Below are positions 4,982-42,584 of a stretch of 58,127 nt of DNA, piece after piece. Position 1 is the first letter of the stretch, and each line of letters starts with the position of its first letter. The translations under genes and the position numbers were made by a program. The notes beneath the pieces are model-generated. The model was not told the DNA's origin. It made no database searches and saw nothing but the letters and a program-made list of their open reading frames with translations. Location of the stretch: the IMG/VR virus record IMGVR_UViG_3300038406_000088, positions 1 to 58,127 of that record. One strand, 5' to 3'. The DNA comes from a virus.

Positions 4982-5176
4982 TCACTCCTCCGTGTCGGTG
5001 TTGGCAGGCATACGCTCCAGAACACTCTGGAGACGTTCGCGGGTGTTCTTGAGGTAGCCCTTAGTGGCGTCGGTGTTGGGGAGCGAACCAGCTCGGAGGC
5101 GCAGGCTCATGACTTCCGATGCGACCAGGGCGCGAACGTCCGAGGCCTCTTGATCGGTCAGTTCGATGTTTACCAT
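4982..5176 (-). CDS. hypothetical protein
   Basis: 64-aa ORF. TAGGCT -10-like element upstream at 5208-5213. Confidence 0.55.
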   Translation of the reverse strand: MVNIELTDQEASDVRALVASEVMSLRLRAGSLPNTDATKGYLKNTRERLQSVLERMPANTDTEE

Positions 5177-8104: not shown

Positions 8105-8196
8105 TGACCGAAGTCGTCGGCGCGACCTTAGTCGTCGGCACATTGACCGTAACCGCGCTAGCGTCCGCCGCAACCGGCCTCGCGCTGGCGATCTGA
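8020..8196 (+). CDS. small membrane protein (58 aa)
   Basis: GAGAAGGGA ribosome-binding site. Hydrophobic C-terminal half, read by hand. Confidence 0.4.
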   Translation: MGTAQRLAPVAGRKATPLARTAFAVWGLMTEVVGATLVVGTLTVTALASAATGLALAI

Positions 8197-8982: not shown

Positions 8983-9212
8983 GACGATCACCCATCGACA
9001 TGATGACGGCAGCGGAGATTGCCGAAGAGTACGGGTTTCATCTGACGCACATCTATTCACTCACCGGTCCGACGAACGCGCACCGTGACGCGGAGCTATT
9101 TCGGAGTCGAGTAGAGACGGACCCGAGCTGGCGAGCGGCTTACAATCCGAAGGCGAAGTACGTCTACCCAAGGTCGGCCGTGAAGGCTTGGCTTCGGAAC
9201 CGGGCGAAGTGA
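8979..9212 (+). CDS. helix-turn-helix DNA-binding protein (possible small terminase or excisionase-like)
   Basis: MTAAEIAEEYGFHLTHIYSL resembles an HTH motif. It is the last gene before terL on this strand. Confidence 0.4.
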   Translation: MRRSPIDMMTAAEIAEEYGFHLTHIYSLTGPTNAHRDAELFRSRVETDPSWRAAYNPKAKYVYPRSAVKAWLRNRAK

Positions 9213-9219
9213 CACAGAG

Positions 9220-9249
9220 ACGGCCACCTCTTGCGAGGTGGCCGTTTTC
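9220..9249. terminator. bidirectional hairpin terminator
   Basis: ACGGCCACCTC-ttgc-GAGGTGGCCGT followed by TTTT. Confidence 0.65.
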
Positions 9250-9250
9250 G

Positions 9251-9835
9251 TTATTCGGATTGTTGCTTTTTCAGCCGCTGCTTTGCGTTCCATGCACGCT
9301 TTCGATCTAGCCTGCATGCTCTGCAATCCCTACCGCCGTTAGGTCGGCTGTACGTGTTTTCGGGGGTGTAAGCGTGCCCGTTGTCGCAGTGATCCTTGCG
9401 CGCGTTTTTCGCCGCGAAACTTTCACCGCGCATCATGTTTTCGTACGGCGTCACAGCTTCGAGGTGCAACGGGTTGCAGCATTTCCGGTTACGACACAGG
9501 TGGTCGAGCTCCATGCCCTCGGGGATTTTGCCCACAAGATGTTCGTATGAAAACCTGTGAGTGAGGATAGTCTTTGTTGCTGCTGTGAACATTGTCCCGT
9601 ACCCACCCGGGTTGGTACAGCCTGTCCAGTTCCAGCATGTTTCTGTCTTTTCGACACGAGTCATAAAGTGTTCGAACGTGATGCCGATGAACATCGGCTT
9701 AATCGGGGTCAGTTCTTTCCCCGTGTACTGCTGCTGATAATGACTGTTACACCAGCCCTTTGCCCACACGTCGCGTTGGCAACCGGAGAACGAGCAGGTA
9801 GACTTAGGCATATCGACTCCTTGTAAGTCGGTCAC
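9251..9835 (-). CDS. HNH homing endonuclease
   Basis: TCWNWTG..GYG..THRFSYE..LDHLCRNRKCCNPLHLEAVT plus Cys-rich ends. GC is visibly lower than the flanking sequence. Confidence 0.85.
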   Translation of the reverse strand: MTDLQGVDMPKSTCSFSGCQRDVWAKGWCNSHYQQQYTGKELTPIKPMFIGITFEHFMTRVEKTETCWNWTGCTNPGGYGTMFTAATKTILTHRFSYEHLVGKIPEGMELDHLCRNRKCCNPLHLEAVTPYENMMRGESFAAKNARKDHCDNGHAYTPENTYSRPNGGRDCRACRLDRKRAWNAKQRLKKQQSE

Positions 9836-9866
9836 ATCCCCGGTCGTTCGCGCGACGCGGGGATCT

Positions 9867-11459
9867 TTGCTGTACCTAGGGTATCATGACCTCATGGATG
9901 CTTTCGGTTTGGATCTGGGTTCCGCCATCACGGATGCCTTTGATGATCTCACGAAAGCCAAAGTCGACTATGTGAATGACCCCGTAAGGTGGGCAGCGGA
10001 ACGCGGCAAGGCGCACCTGTGGTCAATGCAGAGAACCATCCTTGAGTCTGTTCGAGATAATCGGCGAACGGCAGTCCATGCCTCGCACTCAGTAGGTAAG
10101 TCCTATGTTGCCGCCATGGCCGCATGTTGGTGGATTGACTCTCATGTCCCGGGTGAGGCGTTTGTCCTAAGTTCTGCCCCTACGGCCGCGCAGGTACGCG
10201 CCGTCCTCTGGAGGACGATTAATCGTATTCATGCCAAAGCGGAGCTACCGGGAAGAATGAACCAAGTTGAATGGGTATTGCCTACTGGTTCCGACTCCGA
10301 AGAATTGGTAGCTATTGGGCGTAAACCTTCGGAACACTCCGAAGCTGCGTTCCAAGGGGTCCATGCCCGGTATGTTCTCGTGATTCTTGACGAGGCGAGC
10401 GGCGTCCCCGAATCGCTCTGGACGGCCGCCGAAAGTATAGCGAGCAACAAGAATGCGCGCATCTTGTGCATTGGTAATCCAGACCTCACATCAGGCCCTT
10501 TTGCGGACGCGTGTAAGCCCAGTAGCCCCTTTAACGTGCTGCACGTCGGGTATCAGCATTCCCCAGCCATGACCGGCGAGGATGTTCCGCAGCATGTGCT
10601 GGAAGAACTGATTTCCCCCGAATGGGTCGAAGACCGCAGACAGGCATGGGGGGAAGATTCCGCCCTATTTCAGGCAAAGTGCTTGGGGGAATTTCCGAGC
10701 GCATCAGCCGATCCATGGCGCGTGGTTCCCGAGGCGAACGCTGCGCAGTGCCGCTACATCGAACCGGCGTACAACCCCGATGCCGTACGCATCGGCGGGA
10801 TTGACGTTGGTGGTGGTGGTGACCGTACGGTCCTCGTGGAGCGCGTAGGGAGCGCTGTGCGCCGTATCGAGAGCTTCGCAGACACTGACCCCATGAAGAC
10901 GGTCGGCCGTTTGGCGAACCTGATCCAGGAGTGGAATCTTGAAAAGGTCAAGATCGACGTCGCGGGCCTGGGCTGGGGCATCGCAGGCCGATTGAGGGAA
11001 GTCCTCAAGGAGCGCGGGAGCAAGTGCACCGTCAAGGGGCTGAACTTCGCTTCCCGCTCAACACAGCCGAAGCGCTTCCTCAACTTGAGAGCAGAAGCGT
11101 GGTGGAACGGTCGCGAACTGTCACGAAACGAACTGTGGTCGTTGGCGAACCTTGATGACGACGCTATTGCCGAGCTGACCATGCCGCGCTATGAGATCGT
11201 AGACAGCTCGGGAAAGATCAAGATTGAAAAGAAAGATGAGGTGCGCGAACGCCTCGGGCGCTCCCCCGACATCGCCGACGCGCTGTTGCTCGCGTTCTAC
11301 GACGGGACCGGGAACGCAGAGGCTCACGACCCGAGGCAGGCGTACGCGGGTGCACGGCTCGATGAGGTCGCGGGGACGTACAGCCACTTCGGCGGCCCGC
11401 AGATCGAAGGCTTGCCCTTCTCGATTCCGACGCCGCTCGGTGGCCGTCTGACACGCTAA
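9867..11459 (+). CDS. terL: terminase large subunit
   Basis: Walker A-like HSVGKS and Walker B VLVILDEASG, with a C-terminal nuclease-like half. TTG start at 9867; an alternative ATG lies at 9894. Confidence 0.85.
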   Translation: MLYLGYHDLMDAFGLDLGSAITDAFDDLTKAKVDYVNDPVRWAAERGKAHLWSMQRTILESVRDNRRTAVHASHSVGKSYVAAMAACWWIDSHVPGEAFVLSSAPTAAQVRAVLWRTINRIHAKAELPGRMNQVEWVLPTGSDSEELVAIGRKPSEHSEAAFQGVHARYVLVILDEASGVPESLWTAAESIASNKNARILCIGNPDLTSGPFADACKPSSPFNVLHVGYQHSPAMTGEDVPQHVLEELISPEWVEDRRQAWGEDSALFQAKCLGEFPSASADPWRVVPEANAAQCRYIEPAYNPDAVRIGGIDVGGGGDRTVLVERVGSAVRRIESFADTDPMKTVGRLANLIQEWNLEKVKIDVAGLGWGIAGRLREVLKERGSKCTVKGLNFASRSTQPKRFLNLRAEAWWNGRELSRNELWSLANLDDDAIAELTMPRYEIVDSSGKIKIEKKDEVRERLGRSPDIADALLLAFYDGTGNAEAHDPRQAYAGARLDEVAGTYSHFGGPQIEGLPFSIPTPLGGRLTR

Positions 11460-37634: not shown

Positions 37635-37867
37635 CGGAGTCGACGCGCCTTCCCGCTGTCCTCGAACCGTTGCGCCAGACGCTCAGCGTGCCGAATGGAG
37701 CGGCACGAGCGCGTGTCGATGGCCTTGGTCCCCCACTTATCGTCAACGGACTGCACCCACAGATTCGCCTTACCGGTCGTTGTCGCCAGCAGGATGAACC
37801 TGTACCTGAAACTTTCCGCGTTGTACCTGTTCGGGCTCTCTGCGTCTTTCTGCCATTCGAGTCTCAT
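37631..37867 (-). CDS. hypothetical protein
   Basis: 78-aa ORF with a 4-nt overlap. Confidence 0.5.
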   Translation of the reverse strand: MRLEWQKDAESPNRYNAESFRYRFILLATTTGKANLWVQSVDDKWGTKAIDTRSCRSIRHAERLAQRFEDSGKARRLR

Positions 37868-39690
37868 CGGTCATTCCTCCTGTTGAACGCTGCCTCAAGT
37901 TTATCTCTGCGGTATCCTCGCACCTTCTCACCGTTGCCCATTGCGAAGGCGTTCGGCTCAACCTCGACGCCGTGCACGCGCATACGCACGTGCACCTCAG
38001 TGTCAGCGACACCGAGCGCGATAGCGAGCCGAGCTGTTGACACACCTTGCAGCCCCTCGGACAGTTCAAGCGCGACCACAAGCGCATCTTTCGCGTCGAC
38101 CACGGGGGCGAGCGTCTTCGCCCGACGCCACGGCGAACGCGGTTCAAGCGCCTTCACGTGCTCTTTCGTCATGTGCCACACGCGGGTAGGGTCCGGTGTC
38201 CGGTCCTCACCTTGCACGCGAACCAGCGACCACCCGCCCTTGAGGAGGTCTTCTGCGTGCCATCCCTTAGCGGTGGCGTCCTCGCCAAGCACGTTGCGAG
38301 CCTCGGTGGGGGACGATACCGCCATGCACACCTGCGAGGTCAGCTGAGCCGAGATAGCGGAGTCGAGACCCTTACCGGGGCCGGTCACTGTGGGTTTCTG
38401 CGTGGCCCACCAGAGCGGAATCTCTGCCGATCGTGCGCGTCGAGCGATCGAACGCAGTCCGGTCACGGCGTCGGGCACTTCCGACATGAGTTCTGCACCC
38501 TCATCGACAACAACAACGATGCGCGGACGTTCTGGCGTAGGCTCCCAGGTGTCGAGGCTTTCGGTACGCATGATCGCCTCACGCTCTTTCATCTCGGTCA
38601 CTAGATCGCCAATGACCGACTGGATACCGTCTGCCTCGGATTCGACGCGAGCGACATGTGACCACAGCGCGCCTTCTACTTTCAGGTCGATGATGACGAT
38701 CATGGTGTTCGGGAGCGCGAGCGCTTCCGCCATGAGCACACGCAACGCCACCGACTTGCCAGCACCGGACATGCCCGCGACACTGAGCCGGTCGGTCACG
38801 TCGACACTGACGACTTCGCCCGTGTCCGCGTTGAGTCCCAGTCCCTTTCGTTCCGGTGACCAGGTGAGGTCAAGGTCCCGCACGCGAGTGCGGATGCGAA
38901 GGACAGCCCGGTCTGCGGTACCGCCCGGCTTGACTTGCGTCTTGACCTCATCAGGAACCGCGAGCAGTGCTCGCAGTTGATCGACCTGGGTGTCCAGCTT
39001 TGCTGGCGTCCACAGTCCCGCGAACTCCATGGGGATCAAGATGCCGGACTCATCGATGACCGGAGCACCGGGGAACACCTCGTGCAGCTTGCGATCGGCG
39101 GCGTTGGCCTCCCAGGTGTGCACCCGATCGATGATCGCGGATTCGTGCCTGTTGGGCTTGAGACCCGCCTCAGCGTGTTTCCGGGAGAACAGGCGCGTCT
39201 TCTCTTCGACGGGGGCGAGCGTGGTCACCGACTGCACCGGCTCCGCGTCGTCGCGGTGCGTCCAGCCCAGCCACGCCAGGTATCCGTACGCAGCAGGCCA
39301 TGCGAGGAGCGCACCGGGGTTGCCTTCGATGAGCATCCACGGGGGAACGATGAGCGCGCTCGCAGGGACAGCGAGCGTGAGCGCGCATCGGAGCGCGCGC
39401 GTTCCGAATGCGCGCGTGCTCACCTCAATGTCGGTGAGCGCGTTCGCGCGCGCGGGAGGCGCGCTGTGCGCGCGCCTGTTCTTCGACATGCGCGCGTGCG
39501 CGCGCATCGCTCGTTGATGCTGAGCGCTGAGCGCGCGCGCATCGCGCTCCTTGATGTGCGCCTCGATGCCTTCCGCGCGCGTCCATGCGCGCGCATCTTC
39601 GGCGAGCGCGCGCGCACCCCGCAGGGTGTAACCCCACGAGGTGCGCGCCATGCGCGCGTATGCGCGCTCGTTGTTCTCTTCGGCGCTCAT
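37864..39690 (-). CDS. FtsK/SpoIIIE/TraB-like DNA translocase
   Basis: Walker A GMSGAGKS and Walker B VVVVDEGAEL. N-terminal hydrophobic segment and an Arg/Ala-rich N-terminus. Confidence 0.8.
   Translation of the reverse strand: MSAEENNERAYARMARTSWGYTLRGARALAEDARAWTRAEGIEAHIKERDARALSAQHQRAMRAHARMSKNRRAHSAPPARANALTDIEVSTRAFGTRALRCALTLAVPASALIVPPWMLIEGNPGALLAWPAAYGYLAWLGWTHRDDAEPVQSVTTLAPVEEKTRLFSRKHAEAGLKPNRHESAIIDRVHTWEANAADRKLHEVFPGAPVIDESGILIPMEFAGLWTPAKLDTQVDQLRALLAVPDEVKTQVKPGGTADRAVLRIRTRVRDLDLTWSPERKGLGLNADTGEVVSVDVTDRLSVAGMSGAGKSVALRVLMAEALALPNTMIVIIDLKVEGALWSHVARVESEADGIQSVIGDLVTEMKEREAIMRTESLDTWEPTPERPRIVVVVDEGAELMSEVPDAVTGLRSIARRARSAEIPLWWATQKPTVTGPGKGLDSAISAQLTSQVCMAVSSPTEARNVLGEDATAKGWHAEDLLKGGWSLVRVQGEDRTPDPTRVWHMTKEHVKALEPRSPWRRAKTLAPVVDAKDALVVALELSEGLQGVSTARLAIALGVADTEVHVRMRVHGVEVEPNAFAMGNGEKVRGYRRDKLEAAFNRRNDR
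39381..39668. repeat. alternating-GC motif patch 1 (about 15 runs containing GCGCGC)
   Basis: Hand count. Includes the palindrome ATGCGCGCGCAT and a purine/pyrimidine alternation longer than 20 nt at 39487-39507. Confidence 0.85.
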
Positions 39691-40148
39691 CAGAATCCGC
39701 CAAGAGCCTCAGCAACGAGACCCTGCACAATGACCGTCAGGCCGCCGTACAGTACTTGAGCGAGCCCGAAAACCCACCCGTCCGCGCCGTGCGCAGCGAT
39801 GGGGCCGATCAGGAGCGCCCAGATAGCGGCGTTGTTGTAGTCGGGATCGCTCCAGATGTCCGCCACGGTCGCCACGATGGCGAGCACGCAGATAACACCC
39901 ATAACGGCGTGAGCGGGCACAGCACCGAAGTTGCCCAACAGGCTGGTGAATCGGTCTGCGATCCACGTTGACCACGTGGATGCGTAGATGAGGAACGAGG
40001 CGAAGATACCAAGCCCGAGAGCCACGTACGCCGCCTTCGTGCCCCGGCCCCACTTGTAGTTGATGATGTGCGCGGCGATGAACAGCACCACGGCGATCGG
40101 GCCGGTAGCGGGGTTGTTGGTGGCGTCTACAGCTGCCATAACTTCCAT
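39690..40148 (-). CDS. membrane protein (about 4 transmembrane helices)
   Basis: 152 aa, very hydrophobic. Overlaps the FtsK-like start by 1 nt. Confidence 0.6.
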   Translation of the reverse strand: MEVMAAVDATNNPATGPIAVVLFIAAHIINYKWGRGTKAAYVALGLGIFASFLIYASTWSTWIADRFTSLLGNFGAVPAHAVMGVICVLAIVATVADIWSDPDYNNAAIWALLIGPIAAHGADGWVFGLAQVLYGGLTVIVQGLVAEALGGF

Positions 40149-40192
40149 CAGTGCATCCTTTCGTCTGTGTCTTAGGTCTGCATTAAATTATA
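40149..40192 (-). promoter_or_regulatory. promoter (-10 TATAAT) plus conserved leader
   Basis: The minus strand reads TATAAT...CAGACCTAAGACACAG..GAAAGGATGCA..ATG. A paralogous copy lies at 43979-44016. Confidence 0.5.
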
Positions 40193-40239
40193 CACCTGCC
40201 CGGCACGGCACACCAGGTGGGATGCCCTCGTGGTCGCGG

Positions 40240-40316
40240 TGACCTGCGGAAACGCTTCGAGAGCGGTGCTCTCGGCACACCGTGCCGGTGTGCCAAAACA
40301 GCGTTTCCGCAGGTCA
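40240..40316. repeat. 16-bp perfect inverted repeat enclosing two hairpins (three-way junction or cruciform)
   Basis: TGACCTGCGGAAACGC pairs with GCGTTTCCGCAGGTCA. The inner hairpins are at 40258-40274 and 40274-40294. Confidence 0.8.
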
Positions 40317-40332
40317 ACCGTGGTTTAGTGGT

Positions 40333-40386
40333 GTGCCAGCGGGTGTGCCGCTGGCACGGTCCCGGCACACCTTCCCCAAGGGTGTG
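40333..40386 (-). terminator. two tandem hairpins after the stop at 40402
   Basis: GTGCCAGCG-7 nt-CGCTGGCAC and CACACC-9 nt-GGTGTG. Confidence 0.4.
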
Positions 40387-40401
40387 TCGGTCGCTGTGCC
40401 G

Positions 40402-41643
40402 CTAGTACCCGAGCGCCTTGCGCACCGGGGTGAGCCACTTGCCCGCGTGTCCGATGGACTTCTCGGTGGCAGCAGCCAGCCACTTCTGCGTAGGGAGCTT
40501 GCCCCGCTCCGCCACGAACGCAGTCATGCGGACCTTGACATCCTCGGGGATGGTTTCCTGTGCGGTGATCGCCTCGATCATGGCGTCGTTGCCATGCGCG
40601 CGCGTGGCAGCCTCGTGCGCGCTCACCGTCTCCGATGCGCGCGTGTCCTCGGTGAGTGCGCGCGCATCGTCAGGAACATGCGCGCTCACTTCGAGTGCGC
40701 GCGCGGGAGGCGCGCTCACCGGTCGCACGGCGCGCGCGTTGTGCGTGCGCGCGCTCATCGATGCGCGCTCGTTCCAAGGGTTCATGTGCGCGACCGCTTC
40801 GGGAGCGAGCGCGCGCGCACCGACATAGCGCGCGGCGATGCGCGTCTGAATGCGCGCGCGCACTTCCGGCGTGAGGATGCCGAGCGCATCCGCGCGCGCC
40901 CATGCGCGATCGTATGCGCGCTTGTAGAACGCGCGCGTGATCTTGGGTCCGACGTTCGCGGCGTACGCGCAATTGACGATCTGCGTGATGAGTCGTTCGG
41001 TAAGCACCGTGTTCGCGTCCTGCGACGTAGCCTTGCCACGCTTCATACGCCACCAGGTGACCAGAGCGGACGGCTTGTGCGGACGCCCGAAGGTGATGAC
41101 CACGTGCCACGCGACAGCCGCCAGGAGCGGCCACAGCGCGAAGATAGGGCTACCTCCACCCCACCAGGCGATCACTCCCATGAGTGAGGCCATCATCCAA
41201 ACACCGGCTTCGTACCGGTTGAACCCTTCGCCCCTGGTCATGTGCCGAAGGGACAGCGCGCCCAGGATCGCAAGCCACGCCTCGAAGACGATCACAGCGG
41301 AGATAGCCGCATCAACGGAGGTGAGCCCAATGTGCTGGATAGCAGTGATCGTGGCGTGCGCGCTCAAGTTGGTGGCCGCGAGCGCGACGAGCGCGACCGC
41401 GCTCATGAGCGTGATGCGCAGACGCGCGTCTGCGCGCGCGCCTGATGCGCGCGCATCGGCCTTGCGTTGCGCGCGCGCTTCCATGTCGGGGCGCTTGATC
41501 TCTCCCCAAATGCGCGCGCGTTCCCGTGCGCGCTCGCGCGCGCCCTGAGAGGTGCGCCAGAGGATGAGCGCGAGCATGAGCGCGCCGAGCGCGCACGCGC
41601 TCATGAGTGCGCCTGCTGGTGTTGACGTGAAATCGTTCATCAT
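40402..41643 (-). CDS. polytopic membrane protein (DUF2637-like?) with Arg/Ala-rich termini
   Basis: The central section has about 5 hydrophobic helices. Start chosen at MMNDF after a GAAGGA ribosome-binding site. The family assignment is from memory only. Confidence 0.5.
   Translation of the reverse strand: MMNDFTSTPAGALMSACALGALMLALILWRTSQGARERARERARIWGEIKRPDMEARAQRKADARASGARADARLRITLMSAVALVALAATNLSAHATITAIQHIGLTSVDAAISAVIVFEAWLAILGALSLRHMTRGEGFNRYEAGVWMMASLMGVIAWWGGGSPIFALWPLLAAVAWHVVITFGRPHKPSALVTWWRMKRGKATSQDANTVLTERLITQIVNCAYAANVGPKITRAFYKRAYDRAWARADALGILTPEVRARIQTRIAARYVGARALAPEAVAHMNPWNERASMSARTHNARAVRPVSAPPARALEVSAHVPDDARALTEDTRASETVSAHEAATRAHGNDAMIEAITAQETIPEDVKVRMTAFVAERGKLPTQKWLAAATEKSIGHAGKWLTPVRKALGY
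40594..40937. repeat. alternating-GC motif patch 2 (about 16 runs containing GCGCGC)
   Basis: Hand count, with recurring (A/G)TGCGCGC context. Confidence 0.85.
41355..41605. repeat. alternating-GC motif patch 3 (about 8 runs containing GCGCGC)
   Basis: Hand count. Confidence 0.8.
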
Positions 41644-41683
41644 GAGTCCTTCATCTTGGGGGACTCCCACCATAGCACGAAAG

Positions 41684-41712
41684 AAAGCGGGCACCCAAGG
41701 GGTACCCGCTTT
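41684..41712 (-). terminator. intrinsic terminator-like hairpin
   Basis: The minus strand reads AAAGCGGGTACC-cctt-GGGTGCCCGCTTT followed by CTTTCTTTCG. Confidence 0.6.
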
Positions 41713-41955
41713 AAACGAGCGGCGGGAGTCGAACCCGCTTTGATACTCAACAGGACACTAGCCGATACCCTGCCTTCAAACTGCCCTTGCCGATCGGACG
41801 GCTCAGGATTCCGCCGGTACTCATCTCGTGTGGTGAACACCCGACCCATTACGATCGTCGTCCACACCCCGGAAGAGATACCTTCCGAGGTCCTGTACCC
41901 CGCAAGCGTAAACGCTCAATAACGTTCCCTACACGGTGCTGACCGGTACCTCATT
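41713..41955 (-). ncRNA. structured RNA with a tRNA-like T-arm (ncRNA or attenuating leader)
   Basis: A promoter lies upstream and a terminator downstream. GCGGG-TTCGACT-CCCGC T-arm at 41722-41738. No credible ORF. Confidence 0.45.
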
Positions 41956-41961
41956 GTCCTA

Positions 41962-41990
41962 AGCCTAACAGGTGTCCCCGATGCTGTCAA
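41962..41990 (-). promoter_or_regulatory. consensus-like promoter
   Basis: The minus strand reads TTGACA-N17-TAGGCT. Confidence 0.6.
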
Positions 41991-42005
41991 CACCGGGGTA
42001 ACCCT

Positions 42006-42025
42006 GAACGTTTCCGCAGGTCAGA
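42006..42025 (+). repeat. 20-nt exact repeat GAACGTTTCCGCAGGTCAGA (copy B)
   Basis: Identical to 28590-28609. Spans the stop codon of the gene at 42021-42584. Confidence 0.9.
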
Positions 42026-42584
42026 CCAGGTACCACAGGTACTTGGTACCTTCGGTGTTCTCCGTGCGGACCTTCCCGTCACTCTGGAGACGGCGCAGCG
42101 AGGTGTACACGTTCGCCTCCTTCTCGCGGAGTTCCGTAGCAAGCTGGGGCTTCGAGAGCCCTTCCGGGTTCTCGGCGAGCAACTGGAGAATCGTAGCGTT
42201 GCGCTTCGCCACCGCAGCGGACATCGGACGGCCGCGCTTGGGTTCGGGCGTGTACTCGGTGTCGACGCGGTGGGTGCCCCCTTCGAGTCGGCCGCCATTG
42301 GGGTCGGACTCGGCCTCGGCAATTGCCGCCATTGCCTCAGGGTCAGCGAGAATGGCTGCCGTCTCCTCTTCCGAGGTGTACTCGGGTTCAGGCGAATCCG
42401 CGTGAACCAACGCAGCCGCTTCCGCAGCCGCTGCCTTCATCGCTTCGAGATCAGGCTTCGGCTCCGCAACCGGGGTGGGCGTCGCACGAGGCGCAGCCTT
42501 CGGCGCAGGCTCTTCCGCCTTCCGCTGCATCTCCGCGCGCTTCTCGAACGCGTTCTTTTTCTGTCGGTTTGTCGCCACGTACAT
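42021..42584 (-). CDS. winged-helix DNA-binding protein with a Pro/Ala/Glu-rich N-terminus
   Basis: The C-terminus ILQLLAENPEGLSKPQLATELREKEANVYTSLRRLQSDGKV resembles MarR/ArsR-type winged helix-turn-helix domains. Confidence 0.5.
   Translation of the reverse strand: MYVATNRQKKNAFEKRAEMQRKAEEPAPKAAPRATPTPVAEPKPDLEAMKAAAAEAAALVHADSPEPEYTSEEETAAILADPEAMAAIAEAESDPNGGRLEGGTHRVDTEYTPEPKRGRPMSAAVAKRNATILQLLAENPEGLSKPQLATELREKEANVYTSLRRLQSDGKVRTENTEGTKYLWYLV

Follow-up and report, generated by a model that had tools for sequence, protein, structure and literature searches.

An alternating-GC octamer overprinted on the coding sequence of a TraB/Spd-like locus in an actinophage family

Two kinds of short DNA signal have been described in the TraB/Spd systems of Streptomyces plasmids. 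TraB binds the clt repeats, and these sometimes overlap the tra gene (PMC4447253, PMC3583192); the published ones are asymmetric 5-9-mers, often direct, with 3-9 copies that are mostly non-coding (PMC3583192). The sps signal, to which SpdA2 binds, is a palindrome inside the spdA2 coding sequence and dictates an SRDD/E motif in the peptide (PMC4170104, Thoma et al. 2014); it is conserved beyond what the protein needs and has been assayed by synonymous recoding (PMC4170104). Here we analyse a phage locus in which an FtsK/TraB-like DNA translocase gene and a nearby membrane protein gene, p3, carry three dense patches of the alternating-GC word GCGCGC. The window examined is the whole 58,127-nucleotide (nt) stretch of IMG/VR record IMGVR_UViG_3300038406_000088, an essentially complete siphovirus-type actinophage genome (~60% G+C). 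Some 50 related contigs, many of 59-63 kb and with FtsK-like proteins 58-99% identical, are found in IMG/VR, and the patches are present in all of them, with some turnover of sites. We show that the three patches are one conserved nucleic-acid element of ~40 copies, and that the word is under purifying selection independent of coding across a family with >40% protein divergence.

A GC word under selection in three coding patches

Genes and patches, in window coordinates:
37864-39690, minus strand: FtsK/TraB-like DNA translocase gene, 608 amino acids (aa)
39354-39667, unstranded: patch 1, with 16 alternating-GC runs of 6-10 nt, in codons 8-113 of the FtsK/TraB-like gene
39690-40148, minus strand: gene for a 152-aa membrane protein, between the two motif-bearing genes and without GCGCGC
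40402-41643, minus strand: p3 membrane protein gene, 413 aa, carrying patches 2 and 3
40596-40937, unstranded: patch 2, with 16 runs, in p3 codons 236-350
41358-41594, unstranded: patch 3, with 10 runs, in p3 codons 17-96

The patches total 883 bp and hold 66 of the 111 GCGCGC copies in the window; the segment 39300-41650 has 68 of these and 26 of the 27 copies of GCGCGCGC. The original prediction, made from the letters alone, had counted about 15, 16 and 8 runs containing GCGCGC in 39381-39668, 40594-40937 and 41355-41605, and we found 15, 16 and 9-10, with none in 39669-40593 (which takes in the middle membrane gene, correctly described as lacking the motif) and one in 40938-41354; an outlier run near patch 3 lies at 41256-41261. 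The hexamer had been called sporadic elsewhere, and outside the patches the counts of GCGCGC (44 observed vs 52.7 expected), GCGC (493 vs 491) and CGCG (586 vs 604) are indeed those of the background. Palindromic copies occur as had been noted (ATGCGCGCGCAT at 39585 and 41445), and the purine/pyrimidine alternation of more than 20 nt placed at 39487-39507 measures 22 nt (39486-39507), the longest in the patches, which within 958 bp contain 15 of the 28 alternating runs of at least 12 nt in the window. All copies of the word lie within coding DNA and none in the adjoining intergenic regions. According to AlphaFold models, patch 1 encodes two long Arg/Ala-rich helices and the start of the transmembrane (TM) region of the FtsK-like protein, patch 2 the p3 helices 234-276 and a low-confidence linker (276-347), and patch 3 the first TM helix of p3 and an Arg/Ala-rich helix ahead of the second; the segments that carry the patches are 24-25% Ala and 13-16% Arg.

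Neither nearest-neighbour composition nor codon usage reproduced this density. Dinucleotide-preserving shuffles gave 10.4, 10.7 and 7.5 GCGCGC in patches 1, 2 and 3, compared with 24, 26 and 16 observed, and synonymous codon resampling with the codon usage of the window gave 4.2, 3.9 and 3.1, compared with 25, 26 and 16; in neither case did any of 1000 randomizations of a patch reach the observed count. Permuting each patch's own codons also gave fewer GCGCGC (15, 17, 11), and in 18 of 18 orthologues tested codon resampling predicted 2-10 copies where 11-29 were observed. With such shuffles failing in the window and in 18 orthologues, the proposal that selection acts on the DNA and not only on the peptide holds, as selection on the nucleic acid.

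Of the occurrences of the motif, 20, 21 and 28 start at codon positions 1, 2 and 3, and one DNA word is read, depending on the frame, as E-R-A, A-R-x or (V/M/L)-S-A-H. Codon choice in the patches follows this context: Arg-Ala is CGC-GC[G/A] in 85% of cases vs 34% elsewhere, and Ala-Arg is GCG-CGC in 86% vs 27% in the rest of these genes, the corresponding values in 34 other window genes being 23% and 11%. Similarly, a Ser that precedes Ala in the patches is encoded by AGC 87% of the time, vs 19% elsewhere in these genes (18% for the other Ser codons inside the patches), and the base ahead of CGC-GCN is G in 81% vs 40%. Ala codons that do not touch the motif show an ordinary mix. At the FtsK-like N-terminus, the dicodon usage that had been read from the sequence was recovered exactly (GCG-CGC for 7 of 7 Ala-Arg pairs, CGN-GC(G/A) for 11 of 11 Arg-Ala pairs), and Ala not adjacent to Arg is encoded by GCG six times and by GCC and GCT twice each.

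Conservation points the same way. Comparing fourfold-degenerate sites among 16 divergent orthologues, we found third positions conserved at 0.92 in the motif core, at 0.76 in its flanks, at 0.73 in the rest of the patches and at 0.63 outside (Mann-Whitney U test, p = 8e-29), and amino-acid conservation is no higher inside the patches than outside. The word is kept at one and the same place across changes of frame and peptide, as GTG-AGC-GCG-CAC (V-S-A-H) vs GTG-CGC-GCG-CCT (V-R-A-P), which is the conservation of motif over peptide that the original prediction had proposed to look for among orthologues. In divergent tails, new copies of the word appear at non-homologous positions, and of 84 site clusters in 16 genomes 25 occur in at least 13 genomes and 27 in three or fewer. 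The patches are a conserved core combined with site turnover, at retained density. In the Arg/Ala-rich N-termini of the FtsK-like proteins of Woodruffvirus phages and of TraB from an actinomycete integrative and conjugative element (AICE), all from DNA of 68-70% G+C, GCGCGC occurs 2, 3 and 1 times vs 2.0, 3.0 and 1.4 expected; distant homologues of the same Arg/Ala richness thus show no excess, as expected if selection acts on the DNA. The Arg/Ala-rich composition of the peptides is at least partly a by-product of the DNA word.

Three further causes were rejected. The codon bias depends on context, which rules out tRNA supply or translation speed. Overlapping antisense genes do not fit, since all six frames are open in the patches yet the constraint is specific to the core (0.92) and not to the whole patch (0.73). 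Microsatellite slippage or neutral decay is ruled out by positions and synonymous sites that are conserved over >40% protein divergence.

An unbiased k-mer comparison with a codon null in the 16 genomes ranked GCGCGC first (912 vs 250), with GCGCGCA (292 vs 42) and its complement TGCGCGC (146 vs 35) as enriched extensions, followed by GAGCGCGC/TGAGCGCG. The flanks are informative where they fall on free synonymous sites: the base before a frame-1 core is a pyrimidine in 85% of cases (C 58%, T 27%) and G in only 5% vs a background of ~40%, and the base after a frame-3 core is a purine in 89% (G 47%, A 42%). The selected unit is therefore the symmetric, strictly alternating octamer Y-GCGCGC-R. 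No selection on alternation was detectable beyond the codons that overlap a run, the mean alternating length being 10.20 observed vs 10.12 after resampling all the other codons; the G/C runs are mostly of 6-10 nt, and the alternating tracts are shorter than 12 nt in 71% of cases, at least 12 nt in 29% and at least 14 nt in 12%.

Neighbouring sites have a median spacing of 19.5 bp, with 12 of 39 spacings at 14 nt or less, no 3-nt periodicity and only weak power near ~11 bp. Seven consecutive sites in patch 2 (40596-40750) are ~21 bp apart, and a regular array at this spacing holds for these seven only; relatives show the 21-nt register along with turnover of sites. Tandem Repeats Finder gave two-copy micro-arrays only and no head-to-tail unit of 17-22 bp, and a repeat comparison between copies found just the short GC core in common. 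An identical 20-mer, GCGCGCGCGGGAGGCGCGCT, is present in the FtsK-like patch (39446-39465) and in the patch towards the p3 C-terminus (40697-40716), encoding the shared peptide SAPPARA, which suggests duplication or conversion between the two. As a separate observation, purine/pyrimidine alternation extends furthest in the window at 37971-37995 (25 nt, CGTGCACGCGCATACGCACGTGCAC), in the part of the FtsK-like gene that encodes its winged-helix-like domain.

The translocation module and a second, intergenic array

Further features of the locus, in window coordinates:
37870-38085, minus strand: C-terminal H-beta-H-H-wing domain of the FtsK-like protein (aa 536-607), a candidate DNA-recognition domain from its model topology
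40187-40371, unstranded: intergenic control region between p3 and the 152-aa gene
42021-42584, minus strand: gene for a 187-aa protein, upstream of p3, with a weak C-terminal winged-helix signature

The locus is a TraB/Spd-like membrane DNA-translocation module with up to three putative DNA-binding domains. Its FtsK-like protein comprises an N-terminal helical hairpin, two TM helices, a disordered linker, an FtsK-type motor and a C-terminal winged-helix-like domain, and matched Pfam FtsK_SpoIIIE (3.4e-12), PHROG 17958 and, in a profile search of the PDB, FtsK (1.8e-17). In its AlphaFold model (mean predicted local distance difference test score, pLDDT, 81), the hairpin helices span residues 3-38 and 42-67 and the TM helices 87-144, and the top Foldseek match was the dsDNA-bound FtsK motor 6t8b (1.8e-16). 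Homologues at 43-46% identity have Pfam MarR_2, HTH_24 or HTH_IclR matches at the C-terminal end; a direct BLASTP comparison between the C-terminal domain of the window protein and the Pfam-positive winged helix-turn-helix (wHTH) of one homologue gave no alignment. The 3' end of the gene is its most nucleotide-conserved part among relatives, with conservation of 0.86-0.98 over the last 20 codons in every pair compared. The closest cellular relative of the protein, one of these homologues at 43-46% identity, is TraB of a Streptomyces AICE, whose genes encode a GntR regulator, a DUF2637 Spd-type membrane protein, small proteins, TraB, a primase-polymerase (Prim-Pol), a DUF3631 protein, an excisionase and an integrase, a synteny that matches the window order p3 - small membrane protein - FtsK-like protein. 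The 152-aa gene overlaps the FtsK-like gene at an ATGA start/stop, and its product has no Pfam or PHROG match.

p3, likewise without a Pfam or PHROG match, is an orphan family with homologues only in ~60-kb contigs of the same phage group. Its model (pLDDT 67) is helical to residue ~276, and the low-confidence linker that follows is the part encoded by the 21-nt-spaced motifs; the C-terminus (aa 352-411, nt 40411-40590) is modelled confidently as a small four-helix domain resembling a helix-turn-helix (HTH), an assignment that Foldseek of the p3 model against the PDB did not confirm, no match being significant. The Woodruffvirus counterpart upstream of the FtsK-like gene ends in an HTH of the MerR/HTH_17 type. 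The stretch encoding the p3 HTH-like domain (40402-40640, codons ~335-413) is mosaic, at least three alleles being shuffled among otherwise near-identical phages (the window matches contigs L007 and L018, and L022 matches L010); aa 221-240 form a variable island, and the last helix (W-x-T-P-V-R-K-A-L-G) is conserved despite the mosaicism. The 187-aa protein matched Pfam HTH_IclR (0.0055) and HTH_24 (0.02), both below the curated cut-offs, and is a candidate reader of one of the two arrays of the locus.

The second array lies in the 253-bp gap between p3 and the 152-aa gene, which has six of the window's eight exact copies of GGCACACC/GGTGTGCC, in both orientations (at 40207, 40274, 40287, 40330, 40342 and 40364), together with a perfect 17-bp inverted repeat (40240-40256 and 40300-40316) and a minus-strand TATAAT (40187-40192). 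The GGCACACC array is conserved in 18 of 18 relatives examined; it may be the operator of the module or a site for the translocase, and it looks the more TRS-like (TraB recognition sequence) or operator-like feature of the locus. It resembles clusters of other words that are seen at related loci. All six CCGTTCC of the 7.5-kb locus of Woodruffvirus YDN12 (L057) fall in ~350 bp from position 5166, mostly intergenic and upstream of the FtsK-like gene; in Xkcd426 (L058, ~5152) the shorter word CGTTCC forms a cluster at the corresponding place, with six of the ten copies in its locus, and these clusters may be regulatory or recognition arrays. In the Streptomyces AICE (L061, 11051-11204), nine CCGCTACC/GGTAGCGG lie in ~150 bp of non-coding DNA between the DUF3631 and excisionase genes.

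In the genome as a whole, rightward genes encode terminase, portal, capsid, tape measure and tail proteins. The leftward block starts with primase-polymerase, HNH endonuclease, DNA polymerase I and helicase, continues with exonuclease, a Sak4-like protein, single-stranded DNA-binding protein and the 187-aa protein, followed by p3, the 152-aa protein and the FtsK-like protein, and closes with two small proteins and a WhiB-like protein. Among the window open reading frames (ORFs) scanned, none was recognized as encoding an integrase or a methyltransferase. Among deposited phages and plasmids, no close relative of the locus was found by megablast or of p3 by tblastn, and a p3 profile had no match in one-genome-per-species collections, so that neither prophage copies nor a host could be named. 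Rfam searches (E up to 1) found no RNA family in the region, and ARAGORN no tRNA anywhere in the window.

In the 41644-42020 gap, upstream of p3, lie a candidate promoter (TTGACA with a TAGGCT -10 element), an element resembling a tRNA T-arm (GCGGGTTCGACTCCCGC) and a clean terminator hairpin. Relatives have from 1 to 27 tRNA genes at this place (27 in L014, 26 in L016 and L021); the lineage of the window has apparently lost this array, with a remnant or a small RNA left behind. Outside the patches, other GC-rich palindromic hexamers are strongly avoided (GGCGCC, 2 vs 18 expected; GCCGGC, 0 vs 18; CCGCGG, 3 vs 30), a depletion that looks like restriction-site avoidance and might hint at the enzymes of the host.

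How the patches might act

The explanation we tentatively favour, by analogy with the clt repeats and the sps palindrome of Streptomyces plasmid TraB/Spd systems, is that the patches are a multi-site platform for a symmetric, dimeric DNA-binding protein of the TraB/Spd-like module. A palindrome of ~8 bp is the classical target of such a protein, and the palindromic word, its strict flank rule, the lack of selection on length and the spacing of about two helical turns, taken with the TraB/Spd precedents and with the GC-palindrome arrays, ~20 bp apart, in non-coding DNA of unrelated high-GC phages, are the reasons for our preference. The copies would act in double-stranded DNA, written into tolerant cytoplasmic segments of two membrane proteins, namely Arg/Ala-rich helices and a probably disordered linker, and would be bound sequence-specifically by a dimer, for which the winged-helix end of the FtsK-like protein, the p3 C-terminal HTH-like domain and the 187-aa wHTH protein are candidates. 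Many weak sites about two turns apart could then load or tether phage DNA at a membrane translocation complex or, alternatively, nucleate a repressive complex on potentially toxic (kil-type) genes.

Several points weigh against this platform. Its ~40 copies are far above those of clt (3-9) or sps (2-3). The FtsK-like protein of the window has no Pfam winged-helix match of its own, the assignment being based on model topology and distant homologues. The six GGCACACC copies already fit the role of a translocase or regulator site and, as this array is the more TRS-like, there is less need for the GC patches as a recognition site of the translocase. The translocase relatives in Woodruffvirus and the AICE lack GCGCGC clusters, and the element is therefore no general requirement of such pumps. 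Finally, placement in coding DNA only is also predicted by a role in RNA or translation, and the self-complementary word strongly stabilizes RNA or single-stranded DNA (ssDNA) folding (z of -3.5 to -5.9 against the codon null), so that action need not be at the level of duplex DNA.

That last point belongs to the main rival explanation, which we consider rather unlikely, in which selection acts on RNA or ssDNA: copies would pair with one another into stable GC hairpins that dampen or time the translation of toxic proteins, or protect the message. In its favour, every copy falls within the coding part of a single leftward transcription unit, with none in flanking intergenic DNA; folding is stronger than in codon-matched nulls (z of -5.9, -3.5 and -3.9, with control segments at ~0); close neighbours, at the spacings of 14 nt or less noted above, would form tight hairpins; GCGCGCA is twice as frequent on the sense strand as its complement; and genes of the traB type, being kil genes, require tight control (PMC4447253). 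Many sequences could fold, yet one exact word is kept without covariation-type variation, and the preferred flanks show the exact symmetry of a duplex palindrome. Moreover, patch 2 is at the 3' end of p3, where control of translation makes little sense, no Rfam family was matched, and similar GC-palindrome arrays in other phages are non-coding.

Less probable still is a non-B DNA role, in which Z-DNA-prone or supercoil-responsive tracts absorb transcription-generated negative supercoiling near promoters or signal topology. The strict alternation and the share of the window's longer runs found in the patches are in its favour, as are flanks selected to lengthen alternation by one base on each side, a run length that varies (6-10 nt) with no fixed site length, and the way in which patches 2 and 1 flank the intergenic promoter region, on its upstream and downstream side respectively. 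Short (CG)3-4 tracts, however, do not flip to Z at physiological superhelicity, and the B-Z transition needs roughly 12 bp or more, a length that 71% of the tracts fall short of and only a minority exceed. Selection for Z-DNA should favour a few long tracts and not 40 short ones, and none was detectable on alternation past the codons that overlap a run; we know of no Z-DNA function in phages. The original suggestion of Z-DNA-prone elements is weakened: the sequence does alternate, but the runs are mostly of 6-10 nt and alternation is not seen to be selected past the immediate flanks.

Target or decoy sites for a GCGCGC-specific enzyme were a further suggestion of the original prediction, and a target for a GCGC- or GCGCGC-specific methyltransferase, nuclease or modification-dependent protein of the phage or its host appears improbable. 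The word is a short palindrome of the restriction-modification type in dense clusters, clustered GATC-type sites regulate P1 pac or oriC, and the genome does respond to restriction pressure on the three avoided hexamers; yet GCGCGC, GCGC and CGCG are not depleted outside the patches, no methyltransferase was seen among the ORFs scanned, and the patches are far from the terminase genes. A packaging site is also unlikely, the terminase genes being ~30 kb away.

We give even less weight to recombination, by which the conserved blocks would mediate module exchange or be homogenized by gene conversion, in concerted evolution with no reader. Mosaic junctions flank patch 2 (the island at p3 aa 221-240, and a switch of partner near aa 340-360), patches 1 and 2 have the 20-mer in common, and the phage encodes a Sak4-like protein and an exonuclease. 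However, any conserved block attracts homologous exchange, as a consequence and not a cause, conversion needs longer units than 6-10 nt, and symmetric flanks, the use of three frames and turnover at retained density would be left unexplained. The explanation by peptide alone, that Arg/Ala-rich helices and GC-rich codon usage make the motif, can practically be set aside: the segments are Arg/Ala-rich and the FtsK N-terminus is predicted to form real helices, but the codon shuffles, the context-dependent codons, the three frames, the conserved synonymous core and the lack of excess in Arg/Ala-rich homologues refute it.

On the binding platform, the preferred reading, a bolder and distinctly speculative extension can be built: that a lytic actinophage family carries a plasmid-like TraB/Spd machine with its own cis-acting handle of ~40 octamers, and moves replicated DNA between hyphal compartments or cells without virions. 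The array would let the membrane complex seize replicated phage DNA, and the DNA signal would have dictated the Arg/Ala-rich protein sequence. Spd/TraB-like proteins have been suggested to help phage DNA spread within the mycelium, and if the arrays are loading or tethering sites they would support that suggestion (PMC4447253). In the literature found, no function is assigned to the FtsK-like translocase genes of Streptomyces phages, and the present locus joins a pump, two partner membrane proteins, three candidate DNA-binding domains and two distinct conserved arrays. Even if the signal acts through RNA or DNA topology, the regulatory overprinting would still be of a new kind. In any case, it is an unusually clean nucleic-acid signal laid over coding sequence: a single palindrome of 8 bp recurs ~40 times, uses three frames and is selected strongly enough to leave its mark on the amino-acid make-up of two proteins throughout a phage family. 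Low-complexity Arg/Ala stretches in proteins of high-GC phages can be by-products of a DNA signal, which calls for caution in annotation.

Comparison with known systems

Among the translocase relatives, the FtsK-like proteins of Woodruffvirus (YDN12, TP1604, Xkcd426) have a homologous motor (33-37% identity over residues ~177-524), an Arg/Ala-rich N-terminus and a membrane protein with a C-terminal HTH encoded just upstream, but differ in having no GCGCGC enrichment and, instead, six intergenic CCGTTCC. More generally, related loci of the TraB type lack GCGCGC clusters and hold asymmetric 7-8-mers, in 6-9 copies, in their non-coding DNA. When the whole collection was scanned for three close copies of GCGCGCGC, the family of the window came up together with many unrelated arrays, none with the same gene context, which include pentapeptide-repeat genes, simple tandem arrays and GGCGCGCC arrays. 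One of these (L063, ~9100-9900) has GGCGCGCC 20-25 times at a spacing of ~20-25 bp in a non-coding gap beside a Sak4-like ATPase gene, a similar GGCGCGCC array stands at a contig end (L127, 3687-4123), and in L076 (12570-12944) GC runs in non-coding DNA upstream of terS/terL extend into a small Arg/Ala-rich ORF at the contig end. These cases weakly suggest that GC-palindrome arrays are a recurrent type of element in high-GC phages, in differing contexts. With the (CG)n tracts of Z-DNA the word shares alternating G/C and alternating flanks, and it differs in that its runs are mostly short and not selected for length.

The FtsK-orienting polar sequences (KOPS) and the SpoIIIE recognition sequences (SRS) resemble the word in being of 8 bp and tied to an FtsK-family motor with a winged-helix reader. 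They are, however, asymmetric, dispersed genome-wide and strand-skewed, whereas the word is palindromic, with symmetric flanks and enrichment in both orientations, and is confined to 883 bp, the copies outside being at background. It is not a member of the KOPS/SRS class and probably does not work like one. The original prediction of a polar loading signal of the KOPS, SRS or TRS kind was accordingly not borne out, given the symmetric flanks, the enrichment of both orientations, the clustering of sites and the presence nearby of the more TRS-like GGCACACC.

The clt/TRS repeats of pSVH1, pJV1, pIJ101 and pWTY27 are clustered short repeats that act in cis, beside or overlapping the gene of a membrane-anchored FtsK-like dsDNA translocase with a winged helix at its C-terminus, and patch 1 lies inside a gene of the TraB/FtsK-like kind. 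The GC word itself is symmetric, in ~40 copies that are all coding, and the arrays that fit the clt/TRS description are instead the six GGCACACC of the window, the nine CCGCTACC of the AICE and the six CCGTTCC of YDN12. The GGCACACC array is like clt repeats in form and even in sequence (CCGCACA[C/G][C/G] in pJV1, TGACACC in pWTY27; PMC3583192). The GC patches and clt/TRS repeats thus have context in common and differ in anatomy.

The sps palindrome of pIJ101, which we checked in the plasmid record, is CGTCACGTGACG, at 8140 and 8173; a sequence link to the word through a guessed CGCGCG core of sps was accordingly dropped. tblastn of the pIJ101 SpdA2 ORF against the window gave a best E-value of 0.29, and no SpdA homologue is encoded there. 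The sps signal is of 12 bp, in two to three copies and one frame, with SpdA as its reader, and the word of 8 bp, in ~40 copies, three frames and two genes. The likeness is one of architecture only: in both, a palindrome is overprinted on a gene of a spread module and leaves recurrent peptides behind, which in the window are xRA, ARx and SAH.

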